Assembly (NCBI GenBank): GCA_029865835.1
Contig: JARXAL010000061.1
Coordinates: 1 to 61,892 of the forward strand
DNA: 61,892 bases
Source of the DNA: Verrucomicrobiaceae bacterium
GTDB taxonomy: Bacteria; Verrucomicrobiota; Verrucomicrobiia; Verrucomicrobiales; Verrucomicrobiaceae
Direction of reading: 5' to 3'
Part shown: positions 17,390-53,625 of the stretch, in pieces
Layout: each line of letters opens with the position of its first letter
How positions within the stretch are numbered: position 1 is the stretch's first letter
Translations under genes and position numbers: made by a program
Notes under the pieces: model-generated
Told to the model about the DNA's origin: nothing
Database searches by the model: none
What the model saw: the letters and a program-made list of their open reading frames with translations, nothing else

Positions 17390-18060
17390 CCTGCCCAGAA
17401 TTCCCTGTCCCGCAATCCATCGGCACTCTTTACCTGCTGACCTTTGCATTTTTGATCACCGGCTGCGGCGATCCAACGCCACCCCAGAAGACGGCCATTT
17501 CCCTCTCAAGCAGGGAATTCAAATCTCAGTGGCAAGCCTCTGGCATCCCAGAACAGGGACCGACCGAGGTCACCGAGGGTGGTTTGAGAATCGGAGAAGG
17601 TTTTCCCATGACGGGCATTCGATTCGTTGGCGATTGGGAAGCACTCAATCTGCCCTGGATCGACTACGCATTGACCTTTGAGGCGCGCCGGGTCGAAGGT
17701 CAGGACTTTTTTGCCACCTGCACCTTTCCAGTTGGAGGCCCCGACCGCTGTGTGTCGCTCGTCGTTGGCGGCTGGGGCGGTGGACTTGTCGGCATCTCCT
17801 GCATTGACCAACTCGATGCCTCGGAAAACAACACCCGAGGGGAAATGGCATTCAATAATGGCACTTGGTATCAATTTCGGATCGAAGTTCGCGAAGACGA
17901 CCTTCAAGTCTGGATCAATGGAGCCCCCATGGTGAATGTTTCAATCAAAGGCCGACAGCTAAGCTTGCGCTCTGGCGAAATCGACACCTGCGTGCCTCTA
18001 GGATTTGCCTCCTGGCGAACCGTTGGCGAGATTCGCTCAATTGTAGTCCAACGCCTTTGA
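17371..18060 (+). CDS. Putative lipoprotein with a concanavalin-like lectin/glucanase (DUF1080-like) fold
   Basis: Lipobox-like FLITGC. Beta-sandwich-like pattern ending WYQFRIEVREDDLQVWINGAPMVNV. GTG start; the N-terminus is uncertain. Confidence 0.45.
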   Translation: MSSQCSSCPEFPVPQSIGTLYLLTFAFLITGCGDPTPPQKTAISLSSREFKSQWQASGIPEQGPTEVTEGGLRIGEGFPMTGIRFVGDWEALNLPWIDYALTFEARRVEGQDFFATCTFPVGGPDRCVSLVVGGWGGGLVGISCIDQLDASENNTRGEMAFNNGTWYQFRIEVREDDLQVWINGAPMVNVSIKGRQLSLRSGEIDTCVPLGFASWRTVGEIRSIVVQRL

Positions 18061-25984: not shown

Positions 25985-26144
25985 AAGGCGGGCACCCTAG
26001 CGGGGTATCGGCGGGGCGCATCTGGAAAATGCAAACCCAGCCGAAGAAGAATCACCCTGCCCCACCCAAAAACTCCCAAGACAGATCACGCCTCAGGCCA
26101 CGTTGAATCCCTTTCTCCCAAGCCACCCCTAGTCCCACCCCCTC

Positions 26145-27644
26145 ATGAAGCACATCCTCCTTCTGCTCATACTCTGCCTTCTGATCCCGCTGCCAAACAA
26201 GGCAGCCGAGGCCAAAAGACCGAACATCCTGTTCATTCTCGTCGATGACCAATCCCCCTTCGACCTCAAGGCCTATGACCCAAAATCACCGCTGGACTCC
26301 CCCAATCTCGATCGCCTCGCCGCCGAGGGCATGGTGTTCGAAGGCGCCTATCACATGGGATCCTTCAGTGGCGCCGTATGCACGCCATCCCGCCACATGA
26401 TCATGAGCGGACGAACCGTTTGGCACCTCCCCATCGCCCCCTGGGGGAAAAAAACCTGCCCACCCAACTTGGAGCAAAACACCATCCCCGCCGTCTTCAA
26501 TCGGGCCGGTTACGCCACCATGCGCACCTGCAAACAAGGAAACAGCTACGAAGCCGCCAACAGACTTTTCACCGTCCGCCATGACGCCTCCAAACGCGGC
26601 GGCGATGATCAATCCGGCAGCACCTGGCATGGCGACCGCGTCATGGACTACCTCAATACCCGTGAGACCTCCAAGGACACCAAACCCTTCCTGATCTACT
26701 ACGGCTTCTCCCACCCGCATGACACCCGTGACGGTCGCCCCGAACTTCTCGCCAAATACGGCGCCACTAACCACTCCGACCCCAATAGCCTCCCTTCTCT
26801 CCACAGCAAACAGCCGCCTCTCCCCGCCAACTACCTCTCCTCCCATCCCTTCGACACTACCCATTCAGATGTCCGGGACGAAATGCAGGTCAGCGGTGTT
26901 TGGAACAAACGCGACGAAGCCAGCATCCGCAACGAACTCGGTCGCGAAATGGCCTGCTCCGAAAACATCGACATCCAAATCGGCCGCGTCCTAGAAAAAC
27001 TCGAACAGACTGGCGAACTGGACAATACCTACATCTTCTACACCGCCGATCACGGCATCTCCATTGGCCGCCATGGTCTCATGGGCAAACAAAACCTCTA
27101 CCAGCACACCTGGCGAGTGCCCTTCATCGTCAAAGGACCAGGCATCAAGCCCGGATCTCGAATCGAAGGCAACATCTACCTCCTCGACGTCCTCGCCACC
27201 CTCTGCGACCTCGCAGGAATCACCCCACCGGAGACCAACGAAGGCCTCAGCTTCAAACCCGTCCTCGAAGGCCAAAAATCTACCGTGCGCGACACCCTCT
27301 ACGGTGCCTATTCCGGTGGCAGCAAGCCCGGCATGAGGTCGGTCAAAAACGGCGATTGGAAACTCATCCAATACGAAGCCCCGGACCGCAACGTCATGGA
27401 AACCCAACTCTTCGACCTCTCAAAAAACCCGGACGAACTGCTCCCTGAGCACGGCCACCCCAACCTCGCCAAAGACCCTGCCCAAGCCGCCAAACTATCC
27501 GAGATGCAAGGCCTACTCCTCGCCGAAATGCGCCGCCTGGAAGACCCGTGGCGATTCTCCAACCAGCCCTCCGACAACCTCCCTCCACCCCCCCCAGCGT
27601 CCTCCAAGCAGGGCAAAGGCAAAACCAAAAAGACACCCAAATAA
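26145..27644 (+). CDS. Sulfatase (Cys-type, formylglycine-dependent)
   Basis: Signal peptide, NILFILVDDQ, CTPSRHMIMSGR (C-x-P-x-R). Lys-rich C-terminal tail SSKQGKGKTKKTPK. Confidence 0.9.
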   Translation: MKHILLLLILCLLIPLPNKAAEAKRPNILFILVDDQSPFDLKAYDPKSPLDSPNLDRLAAEGMVFEGAYHMGSFSGAVCTPSRHMIMSGRTVWHLPIAPWGKKTCPPNLEQNTIPAVFNRAGYATMRTCKQGNSYEAANRLFTVRHDASKRGGDDQSGSTWHGDRVMDYLNTRETSKDTKPFLIYYGFSHPHDTRDGRPELLAKYGATNHSDPNSLPSLHSKQPPLPANYLSSHPFDTTHSDVRDEMQVSGVWNKRDEASIRNELGREMACSENIDIQIGRVLEKLEQTGELDNTYIFYTADHGISIGRHGLMGKQNLYQHTWRVPFIVKGPGIKPGSRIEGNIYLLDVLATLCDLAGITPPETNEGLSFKPVLEGQKSTVRDTLYGAYSGGSKPGMRSVKNGDWKLIQYEAPDRNVMETQLFDLSKNPDELLPEHGHPNLAKDPAQAAKLSEMQGLLLAEMRRLEDPWRFSNQPSDNLPPPPPASSKQGKGKTKKTPK

Positions 27645-27650
27645 CCGTTC

Positions 27651-29159
27651 ATGCCCTCTCGCTTCTACGCCCTCGCCCTCGGAACGCTTCTCCTGACGCT
27701 TCCCCCTTCCCTGCGCAGCGCCGACCAGCCCAACATCATCCTCATGATGGGCGACGATCACGGCTGGGAGGAAACCGGTTACAACGGCCATCCTCATGTC
27801 AAAACCCCCGTCCTGGACGACATGGCCGCCACCGGCCTGAAGATGAATCGCTTCTATGCCGCCCACTCCAGTTGTTCACCCACCCGCGCCAGCTTCCTGA
27901 CCGGACGTCATCCCAACCGTATGGGCACCTTCGCTCCCGGTTGGTCCTTTCGCCCCGAAGAAATCACCATCGCACACCTGCTCAACCAAGCCGGATACCA
28001 CTGCGCTCACTTCGGTAAATGGCACGTCGGAGCTGTCAAAGCCGATTCTCCCACCAACCCGGGCGCCATGGGCTTCCACGAATGGCTCTCGCACGACAAC
28101 TTCTTCGAACTCAACCCTTCCCTCTCCCGCAGCGGCGGCCCACCCGAAGTCCTCAAAGGCGAAAGCTCCGCCATCCTCATCAACGAAGCCATCCAGTCCA
28201 TCGAACGCGCCCGAAAATCCGGTAACCCCTTCTTCCAAATCATCTGGTTCGGCTCACCACATGAGCCCTACAGCGGCCTGCCCGATGACCTCGCTCTCTA
28301 CGATGACCTCCCCGCCAAATACGCCGATAAAAAAGTCAAACTCACCTCCAATGAAACCGGCGGCCAGGTAACCCGTCCCCAAGGCGACGTCCTCCGCGAA
28401 CGCTACGCCGAAATCACCGCCATGGACCGCGCCATCGGCCAACTGCGCAAACACCTCGCTAACAGCGGCCTGCGCGACAACACCCTACTCTTTTATTGCG
28501 GCGACAACGGCACTTCCGGTGACGCATCACTCGCCTCACCCCACCGCGGCAAAAAGGGCGACTTTTATGAAGGCGGCACCCTCGTCCCCGGCCTCATCGA
28601 ATGGCCCGCCCGCATTCCCAAACCTCGCAGCACCGACTTCCGCGCCACCACTAGCGATCTCCTGCCAACCCTCTGCGCGCTCACCCATCAACCGCTTCCC
28701 AAACGCCCCCTGGACGGCATCGATCTAACCCCCATGCTGGACCACCAAACCAGCACACGCCCCACCGCCTTGCACTTTTGGGAATTCAATGTCGGCACTG
28801 AAAAAGGCTCAACTCGCGAGCCCTACATCGACCCGAAACTCCAGGAAGGCACCACCCCGCTCACCAAAAAATCAGGGGGCAAAGCCACACGCGACTTCAC
28901 CAACTTTCGTCACCCCGTGATCACCGACGCCGACTATCTCGGCACCCGCACCATCATCGACGGTCATCACAAACTCCTCATCCACCAAAGCAAAAAAGCC
29001 GTCTCCAACCTCGAGCTTTTCGACCTTCAAACCGACCCAGCCGAGACAACCAACATCATCGACAAACAGCCCGGTCTCGCCAAAAAACTCCAATCCAACC
29101 TCCGCCAATGGCAGGACTCTGTCTTGAAAAGCCTCACAGGCGCGGACTACCCGAACTGA
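27651..29159 (+). CDS. Sulfatase (Cys-type)
   Basis: Signal peptide, NIILMMGDDHG, CSPTRASFLTGR. Starts 6 nt after the previous sulfatase. Confidence 0.9.
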   Translation: MPSRFYALALGTLLLTLPPSLRSADQPNIILMMGDDHGWEETGYNGHPHVKTPVLDDMAATGLKMNRFYAAHSSCSPTRASFLTGRHPNRMGTFAPGWSFRPEEITIAHLLNQAGYHCAHFGKWHVGAVKADSPTNPGAMGFHEWLSHDNFFELNPSLSRSGGPPEVLKGESSAILINEAIQSIERARKSGNPFFQIIWFGSPHEPYSGLPDDLALYDDLPAKYADKKVKLTSNETGGQVTRPQGDVLRERYAEITAMDRAIGQLRKHLANSGLRDNTLLFYCGDNGTSGDASLASPHRGKKGDFYEGGTLVPGLIEWPARIPKPRSTDFRATTSDLLPTLCALTHQPLPKRPLDGIDLTPMLDHQTSTRPTALHFWEFNVGTEKGSTREPYIDPKLQEGTTPLTKKSGGKATRDFTNFRHPVITDADYLGTRTIIDGHHKLLIHQSKKAVSNLELFDLQTDPAETTNIIDKQPGLAKKLQSNLRQWQDSVLKSLTGADYPN

Positions 29160-29312
29160 CTCATACCAAACGTCATCCCACTCATTGCTCTCCAAACATC
29201 GTGTCACACCCGGGTTTCCAGCCTGATCGCCAAAACACTCCCCGGAAAACAAATCGCAAGAAAGGCCATCGCTGAGCGACTTCTGAAACCCGACTTGTCA
29301 AAACGCCCAAAC

Positions 29313-32300
29313 ATGAAGTTCCACCTCCTCCTCACCCTCTTCACCACAGCTGCGTTCGCCCAGCCGCGCGACGTTTTCGACTACACTGGCCAAAACAATC
29401 CCCCTCAGGGCACAACACGACTGGTGTTCATCGCGGCGAAGGACACGCATGGGGGCGGTGGGCAGCATGAGTTTTTCGCGGGGGCTTCGTATCTGGCGCG
29501 GCGGATCAACGAGACGTTTCCGCAGGCTTTTGCGGTAGTCTATCCGGAGAACAACTGGCCGAAGGACCTCACGAAGGCCGATGCGATCATCGTGCTGCTG
29601 AATCACGGCGGCAAGGCAGCGGACGATGCGAACATCAAAGCGGCCTGTGATCGCGGGGCGGGCTTCGCGGCGATTCATTATGGCGTGGAGGCGAAGATCG
29701 GCTCTCAGGGGAAAAACTACCTCGACTGGATGGGCGGCTTCTTTGAAACGTTTTACTCGGTGAACCCGACTTGGGACGCGAGCGTGCAGCCGGGCAAACA
29801 TCCGGTGGCGAATGGCGTGAAGGCCTTTTCCGCGAAGGATGAATGGTATTACCACATGCGCTTCGTGCCGGAGATGAAGGGCGTGACGCCGGTGCTCAGC
29901 GCTATCGCGCCGCTGAACACGGTGAAGTTCAAAGAGGGCGACAAGCCGAGTCCGCATGGTGGAAACCCAGACGCATTCGCAGATGTGAAAGCGGGCAAAC
30001 CGCAGCACCTCGCGTGGGCGTTTGATCGGCCGAAGGGTGGTCGCGGCTTTGGCTTCACGGGTTTCCACTTCTTCGCGAACATGACGAATGACAGCTTCCG
30101 CACGACGATGCTAAACGGCGTGGCGTGGGTGAGCGGTTTGGAGATTCCGGCGGGCGGCATCGCTTCGAAAACACCGACGCAGGCCGAGCTGGATGCGATG
30201 ATGACCGAGGCTCGCGGTGCGGGTGCGATGCCTGCGGGCAATGCGAAGCCGGTCTTTGAGACGCCGCTCATGACGGCGAAGAATCCAAAGCAGCGCCTCA
30301 TCGAGATCGACGTGGCGATCAAGAACGCGAAGGAGATGTACCTCGTCGCTTCGGATCAAGGTGCGATCTCCTGCGATTGGGCCTCGTGGATCGAGCCCCG
30401 TCTTATCCTGGCGGATGGCAAGAGCATCGACCTTACCACCTTGAAATGGAAGGGCGAGGAGCGTGGTTATGGCCGCACGCAGATCGGCAAAAACAATGCC
30501 GGCGGCCCGATCCAGGTGGATGGCAAGGTGTATGCGAATGGCATCGGCACGCATGCGTCATCGACCATCGCGTATGATTTGCCGGCTGGCGTGGAGCGCT
30601 TCACCGCGAAGGTGGCGATCGATGACGGCGGCATGGTCCGCGCTGGCAAGCCGAGCGATGCGGCGATGCGCTTTCACATCTACACCGCGCTGCCTTCGAA
30701 GCTCCAGCAGGGCGACTTGAATGCCGGGCCGCCACTGGTGCCTGCGGAGATGTTTAATGTGCCCGAGGGGCTGGAAGTCACCGTGTGGGCCGCCTCGCCG
30801 ATGCTCTACAATCCGACGAACATCGACTTCGATGCGCAGGGTCGGATGTATGTGGCGGAAGGCGTGAACTATCGCGGCAAAGGCAATCGCCGGGCGGAGG
30901 GAGATCGCATCGTGATCCTCGAAGACACGGACCACGATGGCAAAGCGGACAAGAGCAGCGTGTTCGTGCAGGAAAAGGGTCTCGCTGCGCCGCTTGGTGT
31001 CGCCGTGCTCGATGATAAGGTCGTCGTGTCGCAGCCGCCGGACCTGCTCGTTTACACTGATACCAATGGCGACCGCATTCCCGACAAGCGCGAGGTTTTG
31101 CTCACCGGTTTCAATGGTCGCCAGCATGATCACAGCCTGCACAGCCTCATCGCCGGACCGGACGGGCAGTGGTATTTCAATCAAGGCAACACCGGTGCCG
31201 AGTTCACCGATCGCAGCGGCAAAACTTTCCGCATGGGCAGCCCTTACATGCTGCAAAACATCGCCGGCCTGAAGAGCGATGACGGCCATGTGTGGATCGG
31301 TGGCTTCAGCGTGCGTATGAATCCCGATGGCACGAACGTGAACGTCATCGGGCACAACTACCGCAACAGCTACGAGCAGGCGCTCACGAGCTACGGCGAT
31401 CTATTCCAGAGCGACAACGACGACCCGCCTGCCTGTCGCGTGAGTCATGTGCTGGAGGGCGGCAATGCCGGATTCGCCAGCGCCGATGGCAAACGCAGTT
31501 GGGGTGCGGACAAGCGCCCAGGGCAGGACACACCGACCGCCGAGTGGCGTCAGGAAGACCCCGGCACCATGCCCGCAGGCGATGTCTATGGCGGCGGCTC
31601 GCCCACTGGCGTGGCCTTCTATGAAAATGGTGCACTCGGTGAAAAATGGCGCGGTTTGTTGCTCGCCTGTGAAGCGGGCAAGAATGTCGTCTTCGGCTAT
31701 CTGCCGAAAGCCGATGGAGCGGGCTTCAAGCTGGAGCGCATGGACTTCCTCACCTCCAACAAAGAGAAGGAATGGGCCGGCAGCGATTTCCTCGGCGGCC
31801 GACCCACGGGCGAGCTGAAGACGAAGTTCCGCCCCAGCGATGTCTGCGTCGGACCCGATGGCGCTTTGTATGTCGCCGACTGGTTTGACCCCGGTGTCGG
31901 CGGTCACGGCACGCGTGACGACGGCTACACCGGAGCCATCTACCGCATCGCGCCGAAGGGTTTCAAGAGTGTGGTGCCCAAACTCGATCTGAACACCGTC
32001 GAAGGTCAGATCGCGGCCCTGAAGAGCCCAGCGAACAACGTGCGCAACAGCGGCTTCACCCGCTTGAAAGCCGCTGGTGCCAAAGCGGTGCCTGCGGTGG
32101 CTGAGTTGCTTGCCGACAAGGATTCCTTCATCGCCGCCCGTGCCGCGTGGTTGTTGGCGCAGATGGGTGATGAAGGCATCGCGAAGGTGAAGCCATGGCT
32201 GGAGTCGAAGGATGCCACGCAGCGACTCGTCGCGTATCGGGCGCTGCGTCGTGCGAATCATGATGTGCTCGCCATGGCTGCGAAAATGGCGTCCGATACG

Positions 32301-33260
32301 GATGCAGCCGTGCGTCGCGAAGTAGCGCTCACTTTGCGCGATGTCCCTGCTGAAAAAAGCGTGCCTATTCTCGTGAAGATTGCGCAGCAGTTCGATGGCA
32401 AGGATCGCACCTATCTCGAAGCCCTCGGTCTCGGTAGCGAAGGCAAGGAACGCGAAGTTTATGCCGCGCTGAGGCCAGCCTGGGATGACGCATTTGCCCA
32501 AATCGCCTGGCGTTTGCATCCCGCTGAAGCTGTGAGCGACTTCAAAGCCCGTGCGCTCAATGAGAAGCTCACGCCCGATCAGCGCAAGCTCATGCTCACC
32601 GCCATCGCTTTCGCTCCCGGACGCGAAGCCGCCGGTACCATGCTCGAACTCGCCCACACCAAGGGCTTCCCCATGCAGGACCTCGCCAAGTGGTGGCTGA
32701 TGAATCGCAAAGGCAATGATTGGAAGGCCTACGACATCGACGGCAGCATGAAGGCCCTCGGCATTTATGATCCCGACAAAGTGAAGCTCGTCGCCTCACC
32801 CATGCCGCCGCCTCCCGCCAATGCGCCAAAGCTCGACCTCGCCGAGATCGCAACCTTGAAGGGCGATGCCAAACGCGGTGCCACCGCCATCGCCACCTGC
32901 TACACCTGCCACCGCATCGGCACCGCCGGCGTGGACTTCGGCCCCGATCTCACCACCTACGGCAAGCAACAAACCGCCGACATCCTCATCCAGGCCATCG
33001 CCCAGCCCAGCCACACGATTTCCCATGGCTACGAAGGCAGCGAGATCAAAACCAGCGACGGCCTCGTCATCACCGGCATGGTCCTCTCCGACAGCGATCC
33101 TCTCATCATCAAATGCATGGGCGGCGTCGTCCAGACCATCCCCCAGAGCCGCATCGCCACCCGCAACAAGCTGAAAACCTCCCTCATGTATGAGCCCAGC
33201 ATGCTTGGCCTCACCCCTCAAAGCATCGCGGACATCGTGGCGTATTTGAAGAGCCTTTGA
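29313..33260 (+). CDS. PVC-type membrane-bound-dehydrogenase-domain protein: ThuA-like + NPCBM-like + beta-propeller + HEAT repeats + C-terminal cytochrome c
   Basis: Signal [18 protein letters not shown] (ATG at 29313; the track start 29295 is TTG). ThuA-like block [18 protein letters not shown]...AIHYG. NPCBM-like block [22 protein letters not shown]. Propeller entry [33 protein letters not shown]. Heme motif CYTCH at 32898-32912, matching the Pirellula/Verrucomicrobium heme-binding domain type. Confidence 0.85.
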
Positions 33261-33310
33261 TCGCAAGAAACACCCGTCATCCTCATTTTAGTCATTCTGA
33301 TTTTCCAACC

Positions 33311-36300
33311 ATGAAACACACCCTCCTTACTCTACTCTCCCTCGCCACCTTCGCAACGGCTGCTCCTCTTGTTTATGAAGGCACCGAAGGGCCGGGCAAA
33401 GGCAAGCACATCGTCTTCATGGCGGATGACCACGAGTATCGCTCCGAGGAGTCGCTGCCTCAGTTGGCTCGTATCTTGGCGAAGCATCATGGTTTTAAAT
33501 GCACGGTACTGTTTGGCATCGATCCCGAATCCGGCGAGATCGTCGGTGGTGACAAGTCGAACATGCCAGGCATCGAAGCGCTGGACAGCGCGGATCTCGC
33601 GGTGGTGTTTCTGCGCTTCCAGAACTTCCCGCCGGAGCAAATGAAACATTTTGATGCCTATCTGAATCGCGGCGGTCCCGTGATCGGCATGCGCACGGCG
33701 ACACATGGCTTTAAAATGCCAAAGGATGCTCCCTTCGCGAAATACTCGTATGATTACAAAGGCAGCGATTACGAGCTCGGTTTCGGACATCAAGTGCTCG
33801 GCCAGACTTGGGTTGGTCATTATGGCAAAAATCACTCACAGAGCACACGCATCGCCATCGTGGATGCGATGAAACAACACCCGATCCTGCGCGGAGTGAA
33901 GGACATTTGGGTGCAGGCAGGTGGTTACGTCGGCAAACCGACCGATGGTGAGATTCTGACAATGGCTCAGCCTCTTGATGGCATGACACAGGATTCCCCT
34001 GCATCCAAGACACAGCCTCCGCAGCCGAGCGAGTGGACCCGCTCCTATAAAAGCGCTTCGGGCAAAGCAGGCCGCGTTTTCACGTCTCTGTATGGCACCT
34101 CCGAAGACATCACAAATGAAGGCTATCGCCGCATGATGGTGAACGCAGTGTTCTGGGCTGTGGGTCTGGAAGACGCGATCAAAGCGGATCTAAACGTCGC
34201 CTTCGTAGGTGCAGGCAAGCCAAACACCTTCGGTGGTGGCACCTATGCTCGCGGCATCAAACCAGAGATGTATGCCGGCTTTGAAAGCCCGATACCCGCA
34301 AACAACAACACGAAGAAGCCTGAGAAGCCGAAGAAGGAAGAAAAACTAGCCGCGAAAGCCGATGCTTCTGCCAAGCCCACCATCGCCACCGGCAAACCTG
34401 CACGCTTTGTCCGCATCGAAATCCCCGGTGACAAAAAATGCCTTCAAATCGCCGAGATTGAAATCCTCAGCGCTGGCAAAAACATCGCCAATGGCGGCAA
34501 AGCCACGCAATCGACCACCGGTCACGGCGGCGACGCGAATCGTGCGATGGATGGCGACAAGAACCCAAACTACGGCAAGGGCATGACGCACACCATCGAG
34601 AACAAGCCAAATCCGTGGTGGGAGATCGATCTCGGTTCCGCACAGCAACTGGATGCGATCAGCCTGTGGAGCCGTCGGGGCTTCCCGGATCGTCTCGGCG
34701 ATTTCACGCTGCAACTGCTCGATGAAGGGCGCAAAGCCGTGTTCGAACTGAAGAATGTGGCCGCTGGCGATTCGCTCACGATTGATGTCAAAGGAGGCGG
34801 AAAGCTCGCTTATCTCGACTTTGATGGAAAACCGGGCAAACCAGCGGTGAAGGGTAGCGGCGGTGGTGCCGGCAAACCTGCGGCCCCGGAGCCTGCGCTC
34901 GTCGAAGTGCCTGCAGACTACAAGGACACACTGCCCTTCGCTTTTAGCAAAGGCGACACCGTAGCGATCCTCGGCAACGGCCTGCCGGACCGCATGCAGC
35001 ATGATGGCTGGATGGAGACCGTCCTGCAAAGCGCCCTGCCAGAGCAGAACGTACGCTTCCGCAACATGAGCGCCAGCGGTGACCGCCCAAACGCCTTCCC
35101 GCGCAGCAACGGCCACATGCACATGACGGATTACCTCCGCCAAGTGAAGCCGAATGTCGTGTTCGCCTTCTTCGGCTACAACGAGTCCTTCGAGAACAAG
35201 CCGGACGACTTCAAAAAGCAGCTCGTTGATTTCGTGAAGTATGTGCGCGGCACAAAGCCCAATGGAAAAACCTTCCCGCGCATCGTGCTCTTCAGCCCCA
35301 TCGCGCATGAGGACACGAAAAACCCGAACGTGCCGGACGGCGCGGAGCACAATCCGCAGCTCGAAGCCTACACGAAGGCCACCGAAGCCGCCGCAAAGGA
35401 AGCGGGCGTGGGTTTTGTCGATCTCTTCCATCCCTCGCTCGACCTTTTCAAAGCTGCCCACGAACCGCTCACCCTCAACGGCGTGCATCTCACCGCCGAA
35501 GGCAATCGCCAACTGGCTGAAGTCATCGCGAAGGCCCTGCTCGGCAAACAAATGACTGCCTCCGCCTCCCTCGAAGAACTACGCGAGGCCGTGCTGGACA
35601 AGGACCTGCACTGGAACGCCCGCTACCGTGCCCGCGATGGCAATGACGTCTGGGGCGGCCGCTCGACGCTCTCTTTCACCGATGGTCAAACCAACGCCGT
35701 GGTGCTCCAGCACGAGCTGACCATGCTCGATGTAATGACCGGCAATCGCGACCCCAAAATCTGGGCGCGCGCCAAAGGCGACGACCTCAAAGTCGATGAC
35801 AGCAACGTGCCGCCGCCCGTGCCGGTGATTTCCAATGTCGGTGGCAAGTCGAAGTCCTCCAACGCTCAAAAAGAAGGCCGCACGGAATACATCAGCGGCC
35901 AGGAAGCCATCAAGCACATGGCCTTTGATCCGCGCTTTGAAGTGAGTCTGTTTGCCGATGAAGCGCAGTTCCCGCAGCTCGTGAATCCCGTGCAGATGCA
36001 AGTGGATACCAAAGGCCGCCTCTGGGCCGCCGTGTGGCACACCTACCCGATGTGGGAGCCTCTCAAGGAGATGAAGGACGCCCTCGTCATCTGCCACGAC
36101 GACAACAAAGACGGCGAAGCGGATCGCATCACCGAGTTTGCCCGTGTGCAGAATCCGCTCGGCTTTGAGTTCTGGAATGGCGGTGTCATCGTCACCTGCG
36201 CCCCGGACATAATCTTCCTCAAAGACACCGATGGCGACGACGTGGCCGACGTGCGCACCATCATGCTGCAAGGCGTCGATTTCGCCGACACCCATCACGG

Positions 36301-37774
36301 CGCGAACAATCTCGTCATGGGCCCCGATGGCGGCATCTACTGGCAGAGCGGCGTCTTCATGGTGCACAATCACGAGCATCCGTGGGGTCCGTCGCTGCAG
36401 ACCGGCACCAGCGCCATGTATCGCTTTGATCCGCGCCGCTTCACCATCGCGAAGCACGCCGACAACTCGCCGAACCCACACGGCATCGCCTTCGACACCT
36501 GGGGCTATCTCTATGCCACCGACGGCACTGGCGGTCGTGCGTATCAGGTCCGCCCTGAGGGCAACGGCTTCAAAATGCACGAGCTACTCAAGAAGGAAGT
36601 GCGCCCCGTCACCGCCAGCGAAGTCGTCAGCAGCACCCACTTCCCCGAAGACATGCAGGGCGACTTCCTCATCTGCAACGTCATCGGCTTCCTCGGCATC
36701 AAGCACTACGACCTCGCCCGCAATGCCGAGGACGGATCGGTCTGGGGCGAGCCTGCTGGCGCAGACCTCACCGTCAAAGTTACTCAAGCCGATGGCAGCG
36801 TCACCGAAGACAAATCCCGCGGCCTTCTCATGAGCGGCGACAAGAATTTCCGCCCCAGCGATGCCGTCTTCGGCGAAGACGGTGCCCTCTACATTGCCGA
36901 CTGGCACAACGTCATCATCGGCCACATGCAGCACAACGTCCGCGACCCCAACCGCGACAACAAACATGGCCGTATCTACCGCATGACCGCCAAAGGCCGC
37001 GAGTTGCAGAAACCCGTCGCCATCGACGGTCAGCCCATCCCCGCGCTGCTAGAGAACCTCAAGCATCCCGCCGATGGCGTGCGCCATCGCACCCGCGTCG
37101 AACTCAGCGAGCGCCCCACCACCGAGGTCATCGCCGCCACGAAGGAATGGATCAAGCAATTCGACGCCACCAAGAAAGAAGACGCTCATCACCTTCTCGA
37201 AGCCCTCTGGCTCCACCAGCAGCACAACGTCCGCGACACCGCGTTGCTCGCCAAACTGCAAACCAGCCCCGAACTGCACGCCCGCAACGCCGCCAACGTC
37301 GTGCAGCAGCTTTGGTTCAACGTCGAAGCCAGCACCAGAGGCGGTGTCATTGCCGGAGAAGCCGAGGAGAAGGTCCAAAAATCCGGCATCCTCAGCGACA
37401 CCGCCGATCTGACCACCATCCGTATCGCCACCATCCGCGAGCGCCTCATGTATGATGTGAAGGAGCTCAACGTGAAGGCCGGCAAGAAGATCAAGCTCAC
37501 CTTCGCCAACACCGACGTGATGCCGCACAACCTCCTCGTCACCAAGCCCGGCAAAGCCGACGCCATCATGAACGCCGCCATCGTCATGGGCGCCGCCGGC
37601 TTCGAAAAAGGCTTCATCCCCGCGGGTGAAGACGTCCTGCATCACACCCAACTCCTCGACGGAGGCAAAGAAGAAGTCCTCGAATTCACTCTCCCCACCG
37701 CCGGAGACTACCCCTTCGTCTGCTCCTTCCCCGGCCACGGCATCATCATGCGCGGCGTGCTGAAGGCGAAGTAA
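33311..37774 (+). CDS. PVC-type membrane-bound-dehydrogenase-domain protein: ThuA-like + F5/8 type C (discoidin) + degenerate SGNH + beta-propeller + HEAT repeats + C-terminal cupredoxin
   Basis: Signal [19 protein letters not shown] (ATG at 33311). Discoidin-like block [22 protein letters not shown]...[11 protein letters not shown]-like segment with GNG in place of GDS. Propeller entry [32 protein letters not shown]. Type-1 copper ligand pattern MPHN...[14 protein letters not shown] at the C-terminus. Confidence 0.85.
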
Positions 37775-37843
37775 CCAACCTGAAGGGCATACCCTCCTTG
37801 TTAAGCGTAAGCTTTACTGTCTTAGCGCGTTCCATAGGTGCCC

Positions 37844-39220
37844 ATGAAACTGCTTCTGCCGCTGATCCTGCTCGGCCTGTCGCTCAATGCCGCGCCACCC
37901 AATGTCGTGCTCGTCGTCAGCGACGACCTGGGCTACCCCGATCTCGGCTGCATCGGCAGCAAACCCATTCAAACCCCTAACCTCGACCGCCTCGCCGCCG
38001 AAGGAACACGCGCCACGAACTTCTACGTCACCTGGCCCGCCTGCACCCCCTCACGCGGCAGCATCCTCACAGGCCGCTACCCCCAGCGGAACGGACTCTA
38101 CGACATGGTCCGCAATGACATGGTCAACTACGGCCACCGCTTCTCCGCCGAGGAATACGCGGTATCGCCCGAAATGACCTTGGGCCTCGACCCCAAAGAA
38201 ATCAACCTCGGCGACATGCTCCGCACCGCTGGCTACATCAATGGCGTCGTAGGCAAATGGGACATGGGGCAAGCCAAACGTTACCTGCCCCTGCAACGCG
38301 GCTTCGATTTCTTCTACGGTCACGGCAACAACGGCATCGACTACTACACCCACGAACGCTACGGCATTCCCTCTCTCTTCCGAGGCAACGCCCGCACCAC
38401 TGAGCACAAGGGCCAGTACATCACGGATGTGTTCGGTCGCGAGGCCCTCAACTTCTTGCGCGAGCACCTCGGTAAAAAACCCGTATTCCTCTACCTCCCC
38501 TTCAACGCCCCCCACAGCGCCTCGACCCTAGCCGAAGACAATGGAGGCGAAAAACCGGGCGTCCAAGTCCCTGAAGCCTACACCAAAAAATACAGGGGTC
38601 TCGTAAAAGACGAGAAACTGGCGCACTACTATGGAGCCGTCACCCGGATGGACGAAGTCATCGGCGATGTCATGATTGCGCTCGATCAAGTCGGTCAAAC
38701 CGACAACACCGTCGTCCTGTTCATGTCCGACAACGGCGGCAGCGGCAACGGTGGCAATGCACCGCTCAAAGGCGGCAAAAGCACCATGTGGGAGGGCGGT
38801 CTTCGAGTGCCCTTCGTCATCCGTTGGCCTGGAAAAGTCCCAGCCGGAAAAGTCACGGGCGAGTTCCTCACATCCCTCGAGATCGTGCCTACCCTGCTTT
38901 CAGCTGCGGGTGCTCAAGCCCCAACTGGCATCGCCCTTGACGGCTTCGATATGCTTCCCGTTTTGCGAGGTGAAAAGCCCTCACCCCGCACCGAAATGTT
39001 TTGGCAACGCCGCGCTGACAAAGCTGCTAGGGTCGGCAATTGGAAATGGATTGACTCCCAAAAAGGCAAGGGTCTCTATGATCTCGCAAACGACATCGGC
39101 GAATCCAAAGATCTCTCAAAGGAGCACCCAGATATCGTCGAACGCCTTCAAAGTCGATTTGCTGCTTGGAGGAAAGAAATGGATCAAACCGATCCCCGTG
39201 GTCCGTTTCGTGACTATTGA
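37844..39220 (+). CDS. Sulfatase (Cys-type)
   Basis: Signal MKLLLPLILLGLSLNA (ATG at 37844; the track GTG is at 37838). NVVLVVSDDLG and CTPSRGSILTGR. Confidence 0.9.
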   Translation: MKLLLPLILLGLSLNAAPPNVVLVVSDDLGYPDLGCIGSKPIQTPNLDRLAAEGTRATNFYVTWPACTPSRGSILTGRYPQRNGLYDMVRNDMVNYGHRFSAEEYAVSPEMTLGLDPKEINLGDMLRTAGYINGVVGKWDMGQAKRYLPLQRGFDFFYGHGNNGIDYYTHERYGIPSLFRGNARTTEHKGQYITDVFGREALNFLREHLGKKPVFLYLPFNAPHSASTLAEDNGGEKPGVQVPEAYTKKYRGLVKDEKLAHYYGAVTRMDEVIGDVMIALDQVGQTDNTVVLFMSDNGGSGNGGNAPLKGGKSTMWEGGLRVPFVIRWPGKVPAGKVTGEFLTSLEIVPTLLSAAGAQAPTGIALDGFDMLPVLRGEKPSPRTEMFWQRRADKAARVGNWKWIDSQKGKGLYDLANDIGESKDLSKEHPDIVERLQSRFAAWRKEMDQTDPRGPFRDY

Positions 39221-39260
39221 CAGTCCGCCTCCTTCTCAATCCCAATCTTCATTCCATCAT

Positions 39261-39965
39261 ATGAAACCTCATCTCGTGGTCGCTCTAATCCTGAATTCAA
39301 TCTCGCTTCATGCCGAAGAACCCGTTCGCGCATTCATGGATGACACCCAGCCAGGCTTCCGCGCTCTTACCGCCGTCGATTTCGCTAAGGTCAACAGCGC
39401 AGACGACACCTGGAGTTGGAAGGACGGCGTACTGCAATGTACTGGCCAGCCCGTTAGCGTCATGCGCACGGTGAAGGAATACAAAAACTTCGAATTGATC
39501 GTCGAATGGAGTCATCAAAAGCCTGCAGGCAACTCAGGCGTCTTTCTTTGGGCGACCCCTTCCTCCATCGAAAAACTCACCACTGCGGGCAAACCAGGCC
39601 TCCCCGATGGCATTGAAGTTCAAATCCTCGACCATGCCTTCACCGAGAAAATGGCTGCGGCAGGTAAAAAGACAGACTGGTTCGGCACCAACGGAGATGT
39701 CTTCCCGGTTCGTGTCAAAATGACCCCATTCCCTCCTCTATCCCCGGATGGCACCCGAAGCTTCCCTCGCAAGCACCTCGCCAAAGGCCACGGCGAATGG
39801 AATCACTACTACATTCGCGCCATCAACGGTGAAGTCCGCCTTTGGGTCAATGGCGAAGAGGTTTCTGGCGGAACGGCTTGCGATCCATCCCAAGGATTCC
39901 TCTGTCTCGAAAGCGAAGGCTCGCCCATTCACTTCCGCAAGATCCGCATCCGCGAACTCCCATGA
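39261..39965 (+). CDS. DUF1080 (3-keto-disaccharide hydrolase family, PF06439) secreted protein
   Basis: Signal MKPHLVVALILNSISLHA. Family hallmarks YKNFELIVEWSHQKPAGNSGVFLW, GIEVQILD, EWNHYYIRAINGEVRLWVNGEEV, and a C-terminal FRKIRIREL. The long upstream part of track ORF 38676..39965 overlaps the sulfatase and is rejected. Confidence 0.8.
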   Translation: MKPHLVVALILNSISLHAEEPVRAFMDDTQPGFRALTAVDFAKVNSADDTWSWKDGVLQCTGQPVSVMRTVKEYKNFELIVEWSHQKPAGNSGVFLWATPSSIEKLTTAGKPGLPDGIEVQILDHAFTEKMAAAGKKTDWFGTNGDVFPVRVKMTPFPPLSPDGTRSFPRKHLAKGHGEWNHYYIRAINGEVRLWVNGEEVSGGTACDPSQGFLCLESEGSPIHFRKIRIRELP

Positions 39966-41332
39966 TGGCAACGTTCAGATTGCTCGCACTCTCACTTCTG
40001 AGTGTTTCAGCCTCAGAAGCGGTCACCCCTCTCACCACCTCAACTCGGCCTAACGTGATTCTGATCATGGCCGACGACTTCGGCTATGAGTGCGTCACAG
40101 CCAACGGCGGCCAGACATACCAGACGCCCAACCTAGACCGACTCGCCGCAGACGGCCTTCGCTTTGAAAATTGCCACGTCCAGCCCCTATGCACCCCGAC
40201 ACGAGTGCAACTCATGACGGGCCGCTACAACATTCGCAACTACCTCAACTTCGGCACCCTTCCCCGCACCGAGACCACCTTCGGGCAATTGCTCAAAAAG
40301 GCCGGTTACGCCACGGGCATCTCCGGCAAGTGGCAATTGGGTCACGAAATCGACTCACCCCAGCATTTCGGATTCGACAAGTCTTGCCTCTGGCAGCAAA
40401 CGCGCCGCCCCCCGCGATATGCAAATGCCGATCTCGAATTCAACGGCATCGAAAAGGACTTCAACAATGGCGAATACGGCCCCGAGCTGGTCAATAACTT
40501 TGCCTTGGAATTCATCACCGAAAAAAAGGAAAAGCCCTTCTTCCTTTACTACCCGATGATCCTAACGCACAACCCCTTCCAGCCCACGCCGGAAAGTCCG
40601 GAGTGGGACCCGAAGACGGACGGCGAGGACAAGCAGCAAAGCCCGAAGTATTTCGCCGATATGACTGCCTACATGGACAAAATGGTTGGCCGTGTCGTCG
40701 CAAAGCTCAATCAACTTGGTATTCGGGATAACACACTGCTGATTTTCTTGGGCGATAACGGCACAAATACAGGCATCACAAGCCGCTTCAAAGGCGCGGA
40801 CTACAAAGGCGGCAAGGGATCGACCGCAGCCCACGGAACGCACGTTCCACTCATTGTGAGCTGGCCAGAAGTGATTAAAGAGGGACGCGTCTGTGCTGAT
40901 CTCATCAGCAGCACCGACTTCCTGCCCACCCTTTGTGCGGCTGCCGAGGTCGAAGTACCCACAACAGTCGACGGTGTCAGTTTCCTGCCACAGCTACGCG
41001 GTGAGGTCGGCACACCTCGTGAATGGCTCTACACTTGGTATTCGCCACGTCAAAAGGCAGACCTGACCATCCGCGAGTGTGCCTTCGACCAGCACTACAA
41101 ACTCTACCGTGATGGCCGTTTCTTCGACATCGCACGCGATCCCTTGGAAAAAGAACCAATCCCTCTTTCAGACATGACCGCCTCAGTTGCCAAAGCCTCG
41201 GAGAAGCTGCAACAGGTGCTAGACCAATTCACCAAGGCCCGCCCTGCCGCACTCGACGAGGCTTTCAGAAAATCCACCCCGGAATTGAAGCCACAGGGAA
41301 AGCGCAAAGGTAAGAGTAAGGTCAAACAATAA
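39962..41332 (+). CDS. Sulfatase (Cys-type)
   Basis: ATG at 39962 overlaps the DUF1080 stop as ATGA. Signal MMATFRLLALSLLSVSA. NVILIMADDFG and CTPTRVQLMTGR. Lys-rich C-terminal tail KPQGKRKGKSKVKQ. Confidence 0.9.
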   Translation: MMATFRLLALSLLSVSASEAVTPLTTSTRPNVILIMADDFGYECVTANGGQTYQTPNLDRLAADGLRFENCHVQPLCTPTRVQLMTGRYNIRNYLNFGTLPRTETTFGQLLKKAGYATGISGKWQLGHEIDSPQHFGFDKSCLWQQTRRPPRYANADLEFNGIEKDFNNGEYGPELVNNFALEFITEKKEKPFFLYYPMILTHNPFQPTPESPEWDPKTDGEDKQQSPKYFADMTAYMDKMVGRVVAKLNQLGIRDNTLLIFLGDNGTNTGITSRFKGADYKGGKGSTAAHGTHVPLIVSWPEVIKEGRVCADLISSTDFLPTLCAAAEVEVPTTVDGVSFLPQLRGEVGTPREWLYTWYSPRQKADLTIRECAFDQHYKLYRDGRFFDIARDPLEKEPIPLSDMTASVAKASEKLQQVLDQFTKARPAALDEAFRKSTPELKPQGKRKGKSKVKQ

Positions 41333-41375
41333 GGGGTCGGAAACACTCCATCTTCTCCGCAATCCGCAGGCGTCA

Positions 41376-42092
41376 TCAATCACGAGCATCGCCAGCGCGA
41401 CTAGGTGGCGCATAAATCGGCCGAGGCAACACCCCCATGCCTGAATCACCATGGGCCGCTTGATCCCGAATCGCACGAGCAATCGCTTCGGCAAGCCGCT
41501 CCCGATACCCCGCCGAGGCAATCAAGGAAGCTTCGCGAGCGTTTGTCAGGTAACCGCACTCTACCAAAATGCATGGTATCGTCGGATTCCGCGTCAACCG
41601 CAGACGGCGTCGCACCAAACCCGCATTCCCTGACTCGTTTGGAATGACCGCACTCAGTTGCAACTGAACCCGTCTCGCCAGCGAGTAACTGTCCGTTCTC
41701 CAGTAAAAGGTCTCGGGCCCGGAAGTCGAGCGATTTCCGTAATTCAGGTGGATGCTGACCAGCACAGCGTCTCCATACCGGCTCGCCAGACGCACGCGTT
41801 CATCCAACTCGATGAATCGATCATCACTCCGTAACTGAACCACCTTGAACCCAGGGGTCAACGCTGCACGCAGCCTTTTCGAAATGTCTAGAGCCAGATG
41901 CTTCTCCATCAGACCGCGCACATGAGCTCCAGAATCTTTGCCTCCGTGTCCAGCATCGATCACCACCGCATTGAATCCCTTGGGTCCAGGTCGATCTCCA
42001 TAAGCACTTCGCCCGGCACCCCCGGATGGCGACTGACAAGACACCATCCCGAATGCAAGCAGGACCCCAGCAATGGCACGAAACGCGTTCAT
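41376..42092 (-). CDS. N-acetylmuramoyl-L-alanine amidase (Amidase_3), lipoprotein
   Basis: VVIDAGHGGKDSGA, LVSIHLN, and a lipobox FGMVSC after the ATG at 42092 (the track TTG start is at 42110). Confidence 0.8.
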   Translation of the reverse strand: MNAFRAIAGVLLAFGMVSCQSPSGGAGRSAYGDRPGPKGFNAVVIDAGHGGKDSGAHVRGLMEKHLALDISKRLRAALTPGFKVVQLRSDDRFIELDERVRLASRYGDAVLVSIHLNYGNRSTSGPETFYWRTDSYSLARRVQLQLSAVIPNESGNAGLVRRRLRLTRNPTIPCILVECGYLTNAREASLIASAGYRERLAEAIARAIRDQAAHGDSGMGVLPRPIYAPPSRAGDARD

Positions 42093-50560: not shown

Positions 50561-50622
50561 TCCCAAAACGAAAGCCCTCTCCACCGGCGTTACTTCCCAG
50601 CACCCATTCGTCGCTCCCTCCC

Positions 50623-51903: not shown

Positions 51904-51911
51904 TCGCCGTC

Positions 51912-53525: not shown

Positions 53526-53625
53526 CTGTGGTAAAATTAGGATTCCCATCGCCGCCCGTTTGCGTTTCAATCAATTGGTCGCTTCCCCAATGGAAACACC
53601 CCGCACTCCAAATCAATCCTCAATC

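Follow-up and report, generated by a model that had tools for sequence, protein, structure and literature searches.

The contig JARXAL010000061.1 of a Verrucomicrobiaceae bacterium (GenBank assembly GCA_029865835.1), analysed here over its full 61,892 nucleotides (the window), carries at 26145-41332 an island of seven open reading frames (ORFs), all co-directional on the + strand, in which four sulfatases and a DUF1080 protein flank two giant multidomain proteins, here called g3 and g4. We consider the chances about even that this is an exported sulfated-glycan locus organised around two lectin-targeted dehydrogenases that resemble soluble glucose dehydrogenase (sGDH), an enzyme dependent on pyrroloquinoline quinone (PQQ), each supplied with an electron carrier of its own. 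The proposal draws on the DUF7133/TIGR02604 propeller, which in g3 models as the six-bladed fold of sGDH/AA12-type PQQ sugar dehydrogenases, on its combination in both giant proteins with lectin-like modules and a C-terminal heme c or type-1 copper domain, and on the exchange of that terminal carrier among orthologs of g4. Gene and domain anatomy, fold, cofactor-ligand motifs and synteny are shown directly, whereas the nature of the cofactor (PQQ or some other), the substrate, the oxidised position and the electron route are inferred. An earlier account drawn from the DNA alone (the sequence-only reading) had seen here a single pathway in which sulfated glycans are desulfated, oxidised in the periplasm and cleaved as keto-glycosides by the DUF1080 protein. 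The genes of the island are the following.

26145-27644, +, g1, 499 aa: Cys-type S1 sulfatase, predicted exported
27651-29159, +, g2, 502 aa: Cys-type S1 sulfatase, predicted exported; the one kept with the giant genes
29313-33260, +, g3, 1315 aa: predicted exported multidomain protein with a C-terminal cytochrome c
33311-37774, +, g4, 1487 aa: predicted exported multidomain protein with a C-terminal cupredoxin
37844-39220, +, g5, 458 aa: Cys-type S1 sulfatase, S1_19-like, predicted exported
39261-39965, +, g6, 234 aa: predicted exported DUF1080 protein of a divergent 'LESEG' subfamily
39962-41332, +, g7, 456 aa: Cys-type S1 sulfatase, S1_16-like, predicted exported; its start overlaps the g6 stop (ATGA)

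Propeller domains and electron carriers of g3 and g4

Domains were called with Pfam and NCBIfam hidden Markov models (HMMs) against their curated cut-offs, which follow the bit scores below. The order of domains in g3 is ThuA, NPCBM, DUF7133/TIGR02604, HEAT_2 and a cytochrome c of the TIGR02603 type; in g4 it is ThuA, F5/8 type C, GDSL_2, DUF7133/TIGR02604 and Copper-bind.

29562-30131, +, g3 ThuA-like module (aa 84-273; PF06283, 48.4 bits versus 33.4)
30429-30731, +, g3 NPCBM/NEW2 module, CBM51-like (aa 373-473; PF08305, 3e-23)
30747-31961, +, g3 six-bladed propeller DUF7133/TIGR02604, a putative sGDH/AA12-like quinoprotein dehydrogenase domain (aa 479-883; TIGR02604, 472 bits versus 122; PF23500, 196 bits versus 27)
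31986-32567, +, g3 HEAT-repeat linker (about aa 892-1085; PF13646, 3e-9)
32862-33254, +, g3 class I c-type cytochrome domain (aa 1184-1314; TIGR02603, 2e-39, 135 bits versus 68)
33575-34159, +, g4 ThuA-like module (aa 89-283; PF06283, 37.7 bits versus 33.4)
34478-34801, +, g4 F5/8 type C module (about aa 390-497), closest to F-type fucose-binding lectins (CBM47)
34799-35524, +, g4 SGNH-like module (aa 497-738; PF13472, 2e-12)
35900-36997, +, g4 propeller DUF7133/TIGR02604 (aa 864-1229; PF23500, 2e-58, 199 bits versus 27; TIGR02604, 170 bits versus 122)
37412-37765, +, g4 type-1 copper cupredoxin, azurin/auracyanin-like (aa 1368-1485; PF00127, 2e-11, 44.7 bits versus 21.2)

The sequence-only reading had named these domains and had placed the propellers in the TIGR02604 type, an assignment borne out by scores well above the cut-off of 122 bits in both g3 (472) and g4 (170). 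Its list of domains stands except for one entry, the HEAT repeats of g4, of which none were detected at E <= 0.01; in their place lies a linker of about 150 aa (residues 1229-1377) without a Pfam match.

When full-length g3 and g4 were compared with the PDB by phmmer, their HEAT, cytochrome, lectin and cupredoxin parts were detected, while the propeller was not and no sGDH appeared. Identification of the propeller required an AlphaFold2 model, which was built for g3 residues 470-895 (pLDDT 72, pTM 0.80) and compared with the PDB by Foldseek. The top match was PQQ-dependent sGDH (1cru/1c9u; E 2e-11, TM 0.57), and further matches comprised the AA12 dehydrogenase CcPDH (6jt5, in third place), the AA12 enzyme of T. 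reesei, PQQ sugar dehydrogenases of Thermus and Pyrobaculum, and E. coli Asd (2g8s). Altogether sGDH, AA12, Asd or related sugar dehydrogenases account for 14 of the 15 and 17 of the 20 highest matches, the rest being the HHIP ectodomain, with E from 2e-11 to 7e-8 over the top twenty and TM mostly 0.5-0.57. The DUF7133/TIGR02604 propeller, a family of about 9,900 clusters at 50% identity, thus models as a six-bladed PQQ sugar-dehydrogenase fold of the sGDH/AA12 type, g3 being the member modelled. Teneurin-like NHL-like repeats, the top PDB matches of the propeller-family profile, were discounted as repeat-motif similarity.

A profile alignment, marginal at E 0.05, places g3 His607 on the catalytic His144 of sGDH, in a segment set against sGDH 'SSKDHQSGRL..GPDQ', and at the same marginal significance places g3 Arg684-Asn685 on the PQQ-contacting Arg228-Asn229. 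The g4 propeller, 27-29% identical to that of g3, has His996 in the column of the catalytic His and SPN (Pro-Asn) where g3 has Arg-Asn; at this last position a propeller homolog from another locus (L081) has His-Asn. A motif FRPSD is common to all three proteins. A further loop, SDNDDPP (g3 residues 700-706, window about 31410-31430), is near-invariant in, and confined to, orthologs of g3, and it aligns with the Gln246-Gly247-Pro248 loop of sGDH, which in sGDH binds the active-site Ca2+. Judged by its Asp-rich composition, it could accommodate another metal, possibly a lanthanide.

Both terminal carriers, which the sequence-only reading had proposed, appear from their motifs to be intact. The cytochrome domain of g3 contains one CxxCH heme site only (CYTCH, 1196), together with a conserved SLM at 1290 that supplies a candidate Met ligand, and resembles (3e-11) the second domain of a high-potential diheme cytochrome (7zs0) from an anammox bacterium, for which +350 mV has been reported. 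The C-terminal heme domain of TIGR02603 is absent from g4, where a cupredoxin stands in its place; this domain matches auracyanin A (2aan, 2e-14) and its copper ligand set is complete (His1406, Cys1471, His1476, Met1480), being kept in each of the seven cupredoxin-bearing orthologs aligned.

The orthologs of g4, which are found at 70-90% identity in many Verrucomicrobiota, end in three ways. Some, of about 1490 aa, bear the cupredoxin alone. In others a CxxCH cytochrome c replaces it, as in L013:4441-8952 with CVTCH at 1382; orthologs with an altered C-terminus include L013, P0294, P0296 and P0340, and those with the cytochrome replacement are 71-80% identical. In a third form of about 1700 aa the cupredoxin and a cytochrome c stand in tandem: the long orthologs (listed at 1685-1741 aa) keep the cupredoxin, and most of them add a cytochrome c domain. 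Because the carrier varies in this manner among orthologs, the C-terminus is best viewed as an interchangeable electron-transfer module, and the retention of a carrier while its chemistry is swapped argues strongly for redox catalysis and electron export by the propeller. The exchange amounts to a natural experiment in electron-carrier modularity. Cultured carriers of g4 orthologs include Prosthecobacter vanneervenii, Brevifollis gellanilyticus and Verrucomicrobium sp. BvORR106, and the question is thereby open to experiment.

The proposal of carbohydrate-binding modules in the sequence-only reading is upheld insofar as the modules concerned resemble galactose- and fucose-binding ones. The NPCBM module of g3 shows a weak match to the CBM51 structures 2vmh/2vmg of C. 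perfringens. That of the F5/8 type in g4 matches FBP32 (3cqo, 3e-21), Sm-hPAF (4gwi, 4e-15) and a fucolectin-related protein (2j1r, 1e-13); the His of its THT motif and two Arg are kept in eight orthologs, although the strict pattern H-x(20-30)-R-x-D-x(3-5)-[RK] is unmatched. The HEAT linker of g3 matches alphaRep/HEAT structures (up to 3e-11). The SGNH-like module of g4 has GNG in block I, where GDS is expected, and NGVH in place of the DxxH of block V, as in all eight orthologs examined; since the catalytic Ser and Asp are missing the module is unlikely to be a classical esterase, and an active carbohydrate esterase was rejected as its identity.

The ThuA-like module of g3 (AlphaFold2 model, pLDDT 82) finds as its top Foldseek matches the uncharacterised ThuA-like proteins 4e5v, 1t0b and 4jqs, in addition to GATase1-fold domains, and is on this model a putative GATase1-like fold without assigned chemistry. 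It is only 33-36% identical to its counterparts in distant long-form orthologs and 25% identical to the ThuA module of g4. Orthologs of g3 occur at 55-97% identity across Verrucomicrobiota and in some Planctomycetota, and most of them are about 1036 aa long, begin at NPCBM and lack the ThuA module. The link drawn earlier between ThuA and the 3-keto-trehalose route is weakened: ThuA is genetically tied to 3-keto-disaccharide formation, but it is absent from most g3 orthologs and the island contains no ThuB-type partner.

Sulfatases, the DUF1080 protein and their surroundings

The spacing of the genes is tight, the successive gaps from g1 to g7 measuring 6, 153, 50, 69, 40 and -4 nt, so that the 6-nt junction and the ATGA overlap noted in the sequence-only reading, like its seven co-directional genes, are real. 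By inspection, all seven products begin with a signal-peptide-like hydrophobic N-terminus. The island has four sulfatases within 15.2 kb, whereas related loci totalling 1.29 Mb have 20 sulfatase ORFs (about one per 64 kb); we estimate a Poisson probability of about 1e-4 for at least four in a stretch of that length. The cluster is real and exceeds what chance would give. Housekeeping genes read from the opposite strand border the island: upstream are YchF and a D-Ser-dehydratase-like gene, downstream an AmiC-like amidase gene and one of the HupE/UreJ type. The nearest relatives of g3 (91-97% identity) are in freshwater Verrucomicrobiaceae metagenome-assembled genomes related to Prosthecobacter.

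Window scans for other genes covered ORFs of about 200 aa or more, and among these no further sulfatase was found outside the island, nor any formylglycine-generating enzyme (FGE), as the sequence-only reading had stated, or anaerobic sulfatase-maturating enzyme (anSME). Genes for such maturation enzymes are usually encoded elsewhere in the genome, and their lack here is accordingly unremarkable. By Pfam the island has no transporter or regulator gene, and neither it nor the window ORFs scanned include a Gfo/Idh/MocA protein (PF01408), a flavin (FAD) enzyme of the GMC type or a TIM-barrel lyase. Rfam and tRNA scans of the whole window found nothing.

All four sulfatases match PF00884 (134-213 bits versus a cut-off of 25; E 1e-38 to 6e-63), and all four contain the formylglycine motif C/S-x-P/A-x-R followed by xxxx[TS]G in its Cys form. 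The likenesses that follow are matches to solved structures, to be taken as proxies for SulfAtlas subfamilies and not as assignments. The product of g1 (PF00884 1e-38, plus SGSH_C; CTPSR at residue 79) has weak matches only, the closest being N-acetylglucosamine-6-sulfatase 5g2v (2e-34, partial) and ulvan sulfatase 6hr5. For g2 (8e-50; CSPTR, residue 75) the closest, at about 1e-40, are the S1_19 kappa-carrageenan 4S sulfatase 6prm (6e-41) and N-acetylgalactosamine (GalNAc)-6-sulfatase 7stt. The g5 protein (6e-63; CTPSR, residue 67) matches over its full length the S1_19 exo-4S-kappa-carrageenan sulfatase 6prm (2e-70), and the best solved match of g7 (1e-55; CTPTR, residue 77) is the S1_16 kappa-carrageenan sulfatase 9fo1 (1e-55). 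Overall, the set resembles most nearly S1_19, S1_16 and related galactose and GalNAc sulfatases in sequence. Orthologs of g1 adjoin g3 in two loci only (L001, 98%; L005, 80%). Those of g2 lie upstream of g3 in L001 and L004 and, at 75% identity, directly upstream of g4 orthologs in two Prosthecobacter loci (L087, L092).

The g6 protein is a clear member of DUF1080 by HMM (PF06439, 8e-30, 104.6 bits versus 26.8), and its subfamily is large and closely conserved, with more than 7500 matches, the best 120 listed being 75-97% identical. In the sequence-only reading DUF1080 was a family of hydrolases; the enzymes are now described as 3-keto-glycoside lyases/hydratases, and the characterised BT2157 type has a conserved site of Glu103, Asn134, Glu164, Gln166, Tyr190, Lys245, Gln273 and His275. 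Its residues other than Lys245 were mapped onto g6 by aligning the DUF1080 profile to 8tda (in which the chain index is the published numbering minus 9), 3osd and 8rr2, with a multiple alignment. Relative to BT2157 (8tda), g6 keeps Asn134, Glu164 and Gln166 (as N91, E119 and Q121) and replaces Tyr190 by F148, Gln273 by E217 and His275 by E219; the loop of Glu103 is deleted, and the C-terminal motif is 'LESEG' against the canonical 'LQxHG'. The same replacements occur in all three subfamily members aligned (P0139, P0190, P0215). While a DUF1080 member, then, g6 fails by its sequence the active-site test of the characterised enzyme type. Orthologs of the g6 type (82-85%) usually lie between PSCyt and DUF1501 genes, with PSCyt1/PSCyt2/PSD1 before and DUF1501 after them (L081-L083, L094); one stands alone (L084) and another follows two Gfo/Idh/MocA genes (L085). 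DUF1501 is, we presume from its Pfam clan, a member of the sulfatase superfamily; the position of g6 orthologs directly before it parallels that of g6 directly before the g7 sulfatase. The role of g6 is the least secure of all: it may process a keto-sugar product, or it may instead partner the neighbouring enzyme of the sulfatase superfamily, as the contexts of its orthologs suggest. A second, weak DUF1080-like ORF (PF06439 2.4e-7, partial) lies at 17371-18060 (+), just upstream of pyruvate kinase; it has a lipoprotein-like N-terminus (FLITGCGD) and overlaps the end of the minus-strand ORF 16259-17449.

Conservation of the neighbourhood was examined with tblastn and jackhmmer in 80 loci around g3 orthologs. 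In the 57 with at least 10 kb of flank the neighbours were as follows, in counts that are not phylogenetically independent.

PSCyt2/PSD1 protein: 35 of 57
Second DUF7133-like propeller protein: 31 of 57 (DUF6797 type 22, g4 type 6)
DUF1501: 22 of 57
S1 sulfatase: 10 of 57
DUF1080: 6 of 57

For DUF1080, a tblastn search of the 80 loci with g6 was insensitive and returned none, and jackhmmer with several seeds found seven. Genes g3 and g4 are adjacent in 12 of the 80 loci, those with short flanks included, and in some (L009, L022) a PSCyt2/PSD1 and DUF1501 pair lies between them; a sulfatase is directly upstream of g3 in about 10 long-form loci. The sequence-only reading had suggested testing synteny across genomes of the Planctomycetes-Verrucomicrobia-Chlamydiae (PVC) group; it is conserved for g2-g3-g4, which recurs, and not for the genes that follow: orthologs of g5, g6 and g7 were found beside g3 or g4 orthologs in no other locus examined, and loci with downstream sequence that lack g5-g6-g7 after g4 include L007, L012, L013, L018 and L022. 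At the level of orthologs the conserved core is g2-g3-g4 only.

At the level of families, on the other hand, the association of DUF7133 with sulfatase-superfamily enzymes and DUF1080 is recurrent. Two Prosthecobacter loci (L087, L092) have in order a canonical LQxH DUF1080 gene, a sulfatase orthologous to g2, a g4 ortholog and a second protein with GDSL, DUF7133 and cupredoxin domains. A large co-directional cluster (L089) comprises DUF1080, GH99-like, esterase, two sulfatase, g4-ortholog, deacetylase, chondroitinase-B-like and DUF7133-cytochrome genes, its DUF1080 member lying about 4 kb upstream of the g4 ortholog. At L081:13593-17237 (-) a 1214-aa protein fuses DUF1080 with the canonical LQIHG, an SGNH-like module lacking the catalytic Ser, DUF7133, HEAT and cytochrome c, and so ties DUF1080 to the propeller family. 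Elsewhere a g4 ortholog is followed by two Gfo/Idh/MocA genes (L093), and the remaining g4-ortholog loci contain PSCyt/DUF1501 or Gfo/Idh/MocA genes, or nothing related.

A different arrangement characterises some 20 Opitutae loci in addition to L046 (L051-L067 among them), where short-form g3 orthologs lie in a conserved block: an esterase, DUF1501 and PSCyt1/PSCyt2/PSD1 on the - strand, followed by g3, a DUF6797 plus propeller protein of about 765 aa and an AraC-PBP regulator. The block contains the enigmatic pairing of PSCyt with DUF1501 that is typical of PVC bacteria. The window itself includes a separate glycan locus at 1459-13583 (-) and 14923-15972 (-), with a beta-helix protein, a 1166-aa fusion of BNR, Golvesin_C and FAD_oxidored, a second FAD_oxidored, two BNR sialidase-like proteins, an RraA-like aldolase and a DHDPS/NanA-like lyase, and with a GntR/LacI-type regulator nearby. 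At 48836-57405 are type II secretion system genes (E, F, J-like and K-like), in a stretch of higher GC content (60-65%) where the GC skew is strongly negative and many ORFs overlap.

Proposed mechanism and competing readings

In the mechanism that we propose, Cys-type exo-sulfatases would remove sulfate esters from glycans rich in galactose, GalNAc or fucose; g3 and g4 would attach to the glycan, or to fragments of it, by way of their binding modules, CBM51-like in the former and F-type fucolectin-like in the latter; a hydroxyl of the sugar would be oxidised at the propeller site, homology indicating the anomeric C1-OH at reducing ends as the most probable one; and the electrons would pass through the fused heme (g3) or copper (g4) to the aerobic respiratory chain. 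By analogy, g3 and g4 would in this scheme resemble the fungal CBM1-AA12-cytochrome enzyme CcPDH.

A number of observations weigh against it. The model of the g3 propeller reaches just moderate confidence (pLDDT 72), the similarity to sGDH in sequence, at E 0.05, is marginal and to be read together with the fold result, PF07995 (GSDH) has no match in g3 or g4 at E <= 0.01, and the Arg of the Arg-Asn pair is missing in g4 and other DUF7133 members. The commonest neighbours of g3 are PSCyt2/PSD1 and DUF1501, with S1 sulfatases and DUF1080 rarer, and the arrangement g1-g2-g3 is reproduced only in L001, a 96%-identical relative whose contig ends just after g3. A promoter and terminator scan of 25800-41600 returned 2 promoter-like sites and 15 terminator-like ones, numbers that shuffled sequence also reaches, with none usefully placed between genes, and is thus uninformative on operon structure. 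Finally, the one tested relative, Lac161_ORF7, was reported as a beta-galactosidase. This protein (GenBank AGW45552; PMC5342196), which combines TIGR02604, HEAT and cytochrome c, is encoded on a soil cosmid of Chthoniobacter-like type. Purified from S. meliloti, it released glucose when given lactose (Km 1.8 mM), as read out with a glucose oxidase/peroxidase kit (PMC5342196). The statement in the sequence-only reading that no giant protein of this kind has an experimentally defined substrate overlooks this work. Purification from S. meliloti would be in keeping with a protein that requires PQQ and the maturation of cytochrome c, a point that is ours and not made by the authors of PMC5342196.

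The sequence-only reading itself places the oxidation at C3: g3 and g4 would be glycoside 3-dehydrogenases acting after desulfation, and DUF1080 would cleave the 3-keto-glycoside by elimination and hydration, in a respiration-coupled and non-hydrolytic route. We consider this unlikely, although it is the strongest of the alternatives. It gains from the activity of BT2157-type DUF1080 enzymes on 3-keto-glycosides, from the fusion of DUF1080 to GDSL, DUF7133, HEAT and cytochrome c proteins (L081/L082), from the canonical LQxH DUF1080 just upstream of the g2/g4-ortholog pair (L087, L092) or about 4 kb upstream (L089), from the genetic tie of ThuA to 3-keto-disaccharides, and from the pairs of Gfo/Idh/MocA genes beside a g6 ortholog (L085) and after a g4 ortholog (L093); moreover, oxidative cleavage could in our view reconcile the cleavage of lactose by a TIGR02604 protein with a dehydrogenase-like build. 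However, no enzyme of sGDH/AA12 fold is known for C3, the known 3-dehydrogenases being of the FAD/GMC or Gfo/Idh/MocA types, neither of which is in the island. What survives of periplasmic oxidation is thus a modelled sugar-dehydrogenase fold with its catalytic His apparently retained, in a fold known for C1 and not C3. Cleavage by DUF1080 fares similarly: the family is fused to or near propellers elsewhere, but in g6 the residues Tyr190, Gln273 and His275 give way to Phe, Glu and Glu and the Glu103 loop is missing, g6 orthologs lie mostly between PSCyt and DUF1501 and not beside dehydrogenases, DUF1080 is present in just 6 of 57 g3 neighbourhoods, and ThuA is missing from most g3 orthologs.

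Whether the island is one unit is a separate matter. A g2-g3-g4 module may lie beside unrelated sulfatase and DUF1080 genes, in a genome where these would be very numerous, a view that mainly concerns g5-g7 and that we hold to be improbable. It would account for the absence of g5, g6 and g7 orthologs beside g3 or g4 in other loci with downstream sequence, for the entirely different neighbours of a g3 ortholog of 92% identity (L086), for the widely varying contexts of g6 orthologs and for the lack of a transporter or regulator gene. Against it stand the tight co-directional spacing with its ATGA overlap, the absence of any terminator-like site on the + strand between the island genes, the density of four sulfatases in 15 kb against about one per 64 kb in related sequence, and the recurrence of the DUF1080, sulfatase and DUF7133 trio elsewhere at the family level. 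The single pathway claimed by the sequence-only reading is favoured by the g2-type sulfatase upstream of g4 orthologs in Prosthecobacter, but not by g6, whose orthologs keep other company. Least probable, to our mind, is that the propellers are non-redox carbohydrate-active enzymes, members of a new beta-propeller hydrolase or lyase family whose heme and copper serve sensing, stability or an unrelated function. The release of glucose from lactose by Lac161_ORF7 (Km 1.8 mM) speaks for it, as do the inclusion of both TIGR02604 and DUF1080 among putative families of glycoside hydrolases in genome papers on planctomycetes, the presence of six-bladed lactonases and lyases (PON1, virginiamycin B lyase) among lower-ranked Foldseek matches, and a report of one DUF1080 protein as an endo-xanthanase/lichenase. 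Yet the best fold matches are all PQQ dehydrogenases, g3 appears to retain the catalytic His and the Arg-Asn pair, and without redox catalysis it is difficult to account for a covalently fused carrier that is kept while changing between heme c and copper; in addition, the glucose oxidase/peroxidase read-out is open to disturbance by a redox enzyme, and no follow-up was found in the literature searched.

The dehydrogenase proposal also admits a bolder form, in which g3 and g4 would be the founding members of a class of glycoside dehydrogenases, quinoprotein-like, periplasmic and targeted by lectin modules, that oxidise a non-anomeric position of sugars still bound in sulfated fucose- or galactose-rich polymers and, together with DUF1080 lyase/hydratases, would achieve respiration-coupled, non-hydrolytic depolymerisation, the electrons leaving through interchangeable heme c or type-1 copper modules. 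To this form we give the same low credence as to a chance juxtaposition of g2-g4 and g5-g7. Were it true, it would provide a function for a propeller family of about 10,000 PVC clusters and possibly for its PSCyt/DUF1501 partners. From a broader perspective, few uncharacterised exported proteins of Verrucomicrobiota and Planctomycetota match those with DUF7133/TIGR02604 in size and number, and the window offers a compact example that can be tested. If they are carbohydrate dehydrogenases wired directly to respiration, PVC bacteria of freshwater, soil and marine habitats would gain energy in the periplasm from part of the glycan carbon before its uptake, and the tie to sulfatases would suggest that sulfated glycans of algae or hosts are the fuel. 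Already on record are the protein families, how abundant they are in PVC bacteria and the idea of six-bladed PQQ dehydrogenases in glycan loci; not found described were the architecture joining ThuA, lectin, propeller and cupredoxin or cytochrome, the swapping of carriers, the pairing of g2 with g4 and the 'LESEG' subfamily of DUF1080.

Comparison with known systems

Literature on DUF7133 or 'PVC-type heme-binding' domains yielded almost nothing beyond PMC5342196 and the paper on the anammox diheme cytochrome, and that on ThuA-like proteins with cytochrome c in planctomycetes nothing useful. The nearest survey is a preprint of July 2026 (bioRxiv 10.64898/2026.07.10.737718) describing about 22,000 bacterial six-bladed PQQ propellers, some from Verrucomicrobia/Planctomycetes, which bind Ca or lanthanides and of which some members have fused heme domains. 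They occur in clusters of carbohydrate-active enzymes that include sulfatases, in 400 genomes, and the authors propose periplasmic oxidation of reducing ends with electrons passed to cytochromes (bioRxiv 10.64898/2026.07.10.737718). Membership there is defined by nine PQQ residues, and the main text is without the terms 'cupredoxin', 'ThuA', 'DUF1080' and 'carbohydrate-binding'.

Lac161_ORF7, likened here by its described architecture, shares with g3 the same core and the same phylum and is the sole family member with a reported activity that we found; it differs in being reported as a beta-galactosidase and in having no NPCBM or ThuA module listed. With BT2157/AL2, the DUF1080 3-keto-alpha-glucoside 1,2-lyase/3-keto-2-hydroxyglucal hydratase of Bacteroides and Alistipes, g6 has in common PF06439, a signal-peptide-like N-terminus and single-domain size, but it lacks an adjacent Gfo/Idh/MocA dehydrogenase or TIM-barrel lyase. 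A counterpart in the LacABC-type FAD glucoside 3-dehydrogenase was considered and rejected, as no FAD/GMC domain occurs in g1-g7.

Methylamine dehydrogenase passes electrons to amicyanin, and quinohemoprotein alcohol dehydrogenase to azurin, in chains that lead from a quinone dehydrogenase through type-1 copper to c-type cytochromes. The tandems of cupredoxin and cytochrome c in g4 orthologs resemble such chains; in g4, however, the carrier is covalently fused, and the catalytic domain is a six-bladed propeller rather than a TTQ (tryptophan tryptophylquinone) fold or an eight-bladed propeller.

The best fold matches to the g3 propeller are sGDH of Acinetobacter calcoaceticus and Asd/YliI of E. 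coli, which, unlike g3 and g4, are single-domain proteins that have neither a binding module nor a fused carrier; large conserved insertions, SDNDDPP included, also set the g3 propeller apart from both. The fold family of sGDH, Asd and AA12 is known for oxidation at C1 of the reducing end and not for the formation of 3-keto-glycosides. As a whole, g3 and g4 are perhaps best compared with CcPDH of Coprinopsis cinerea, which joins an AA12 propeller, an AA8 cytochrome b and CBM1. They differ from it in being bacterial and predicted periplasmic, in a carrier of heme c (CxxCH) or type-1 copper instead of heme b, in additional ThuA-like, HEAT and pseudo-SGNH modules, in an identity of about 15% and, for g4, in the lack of the Arg of the Arg-Asn pair. 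The likeness lies in a six-bladed, sGDH-like propeller and in the union of binding module, dehydrogenase domain and fused cytochrome within one secreted polypeptide. CcPDH prefers L-fucose and L-galactose, which it oxidises probably at C1, and this preference fits the fucolectin-like and CBM51-like modules of g4 and g3.

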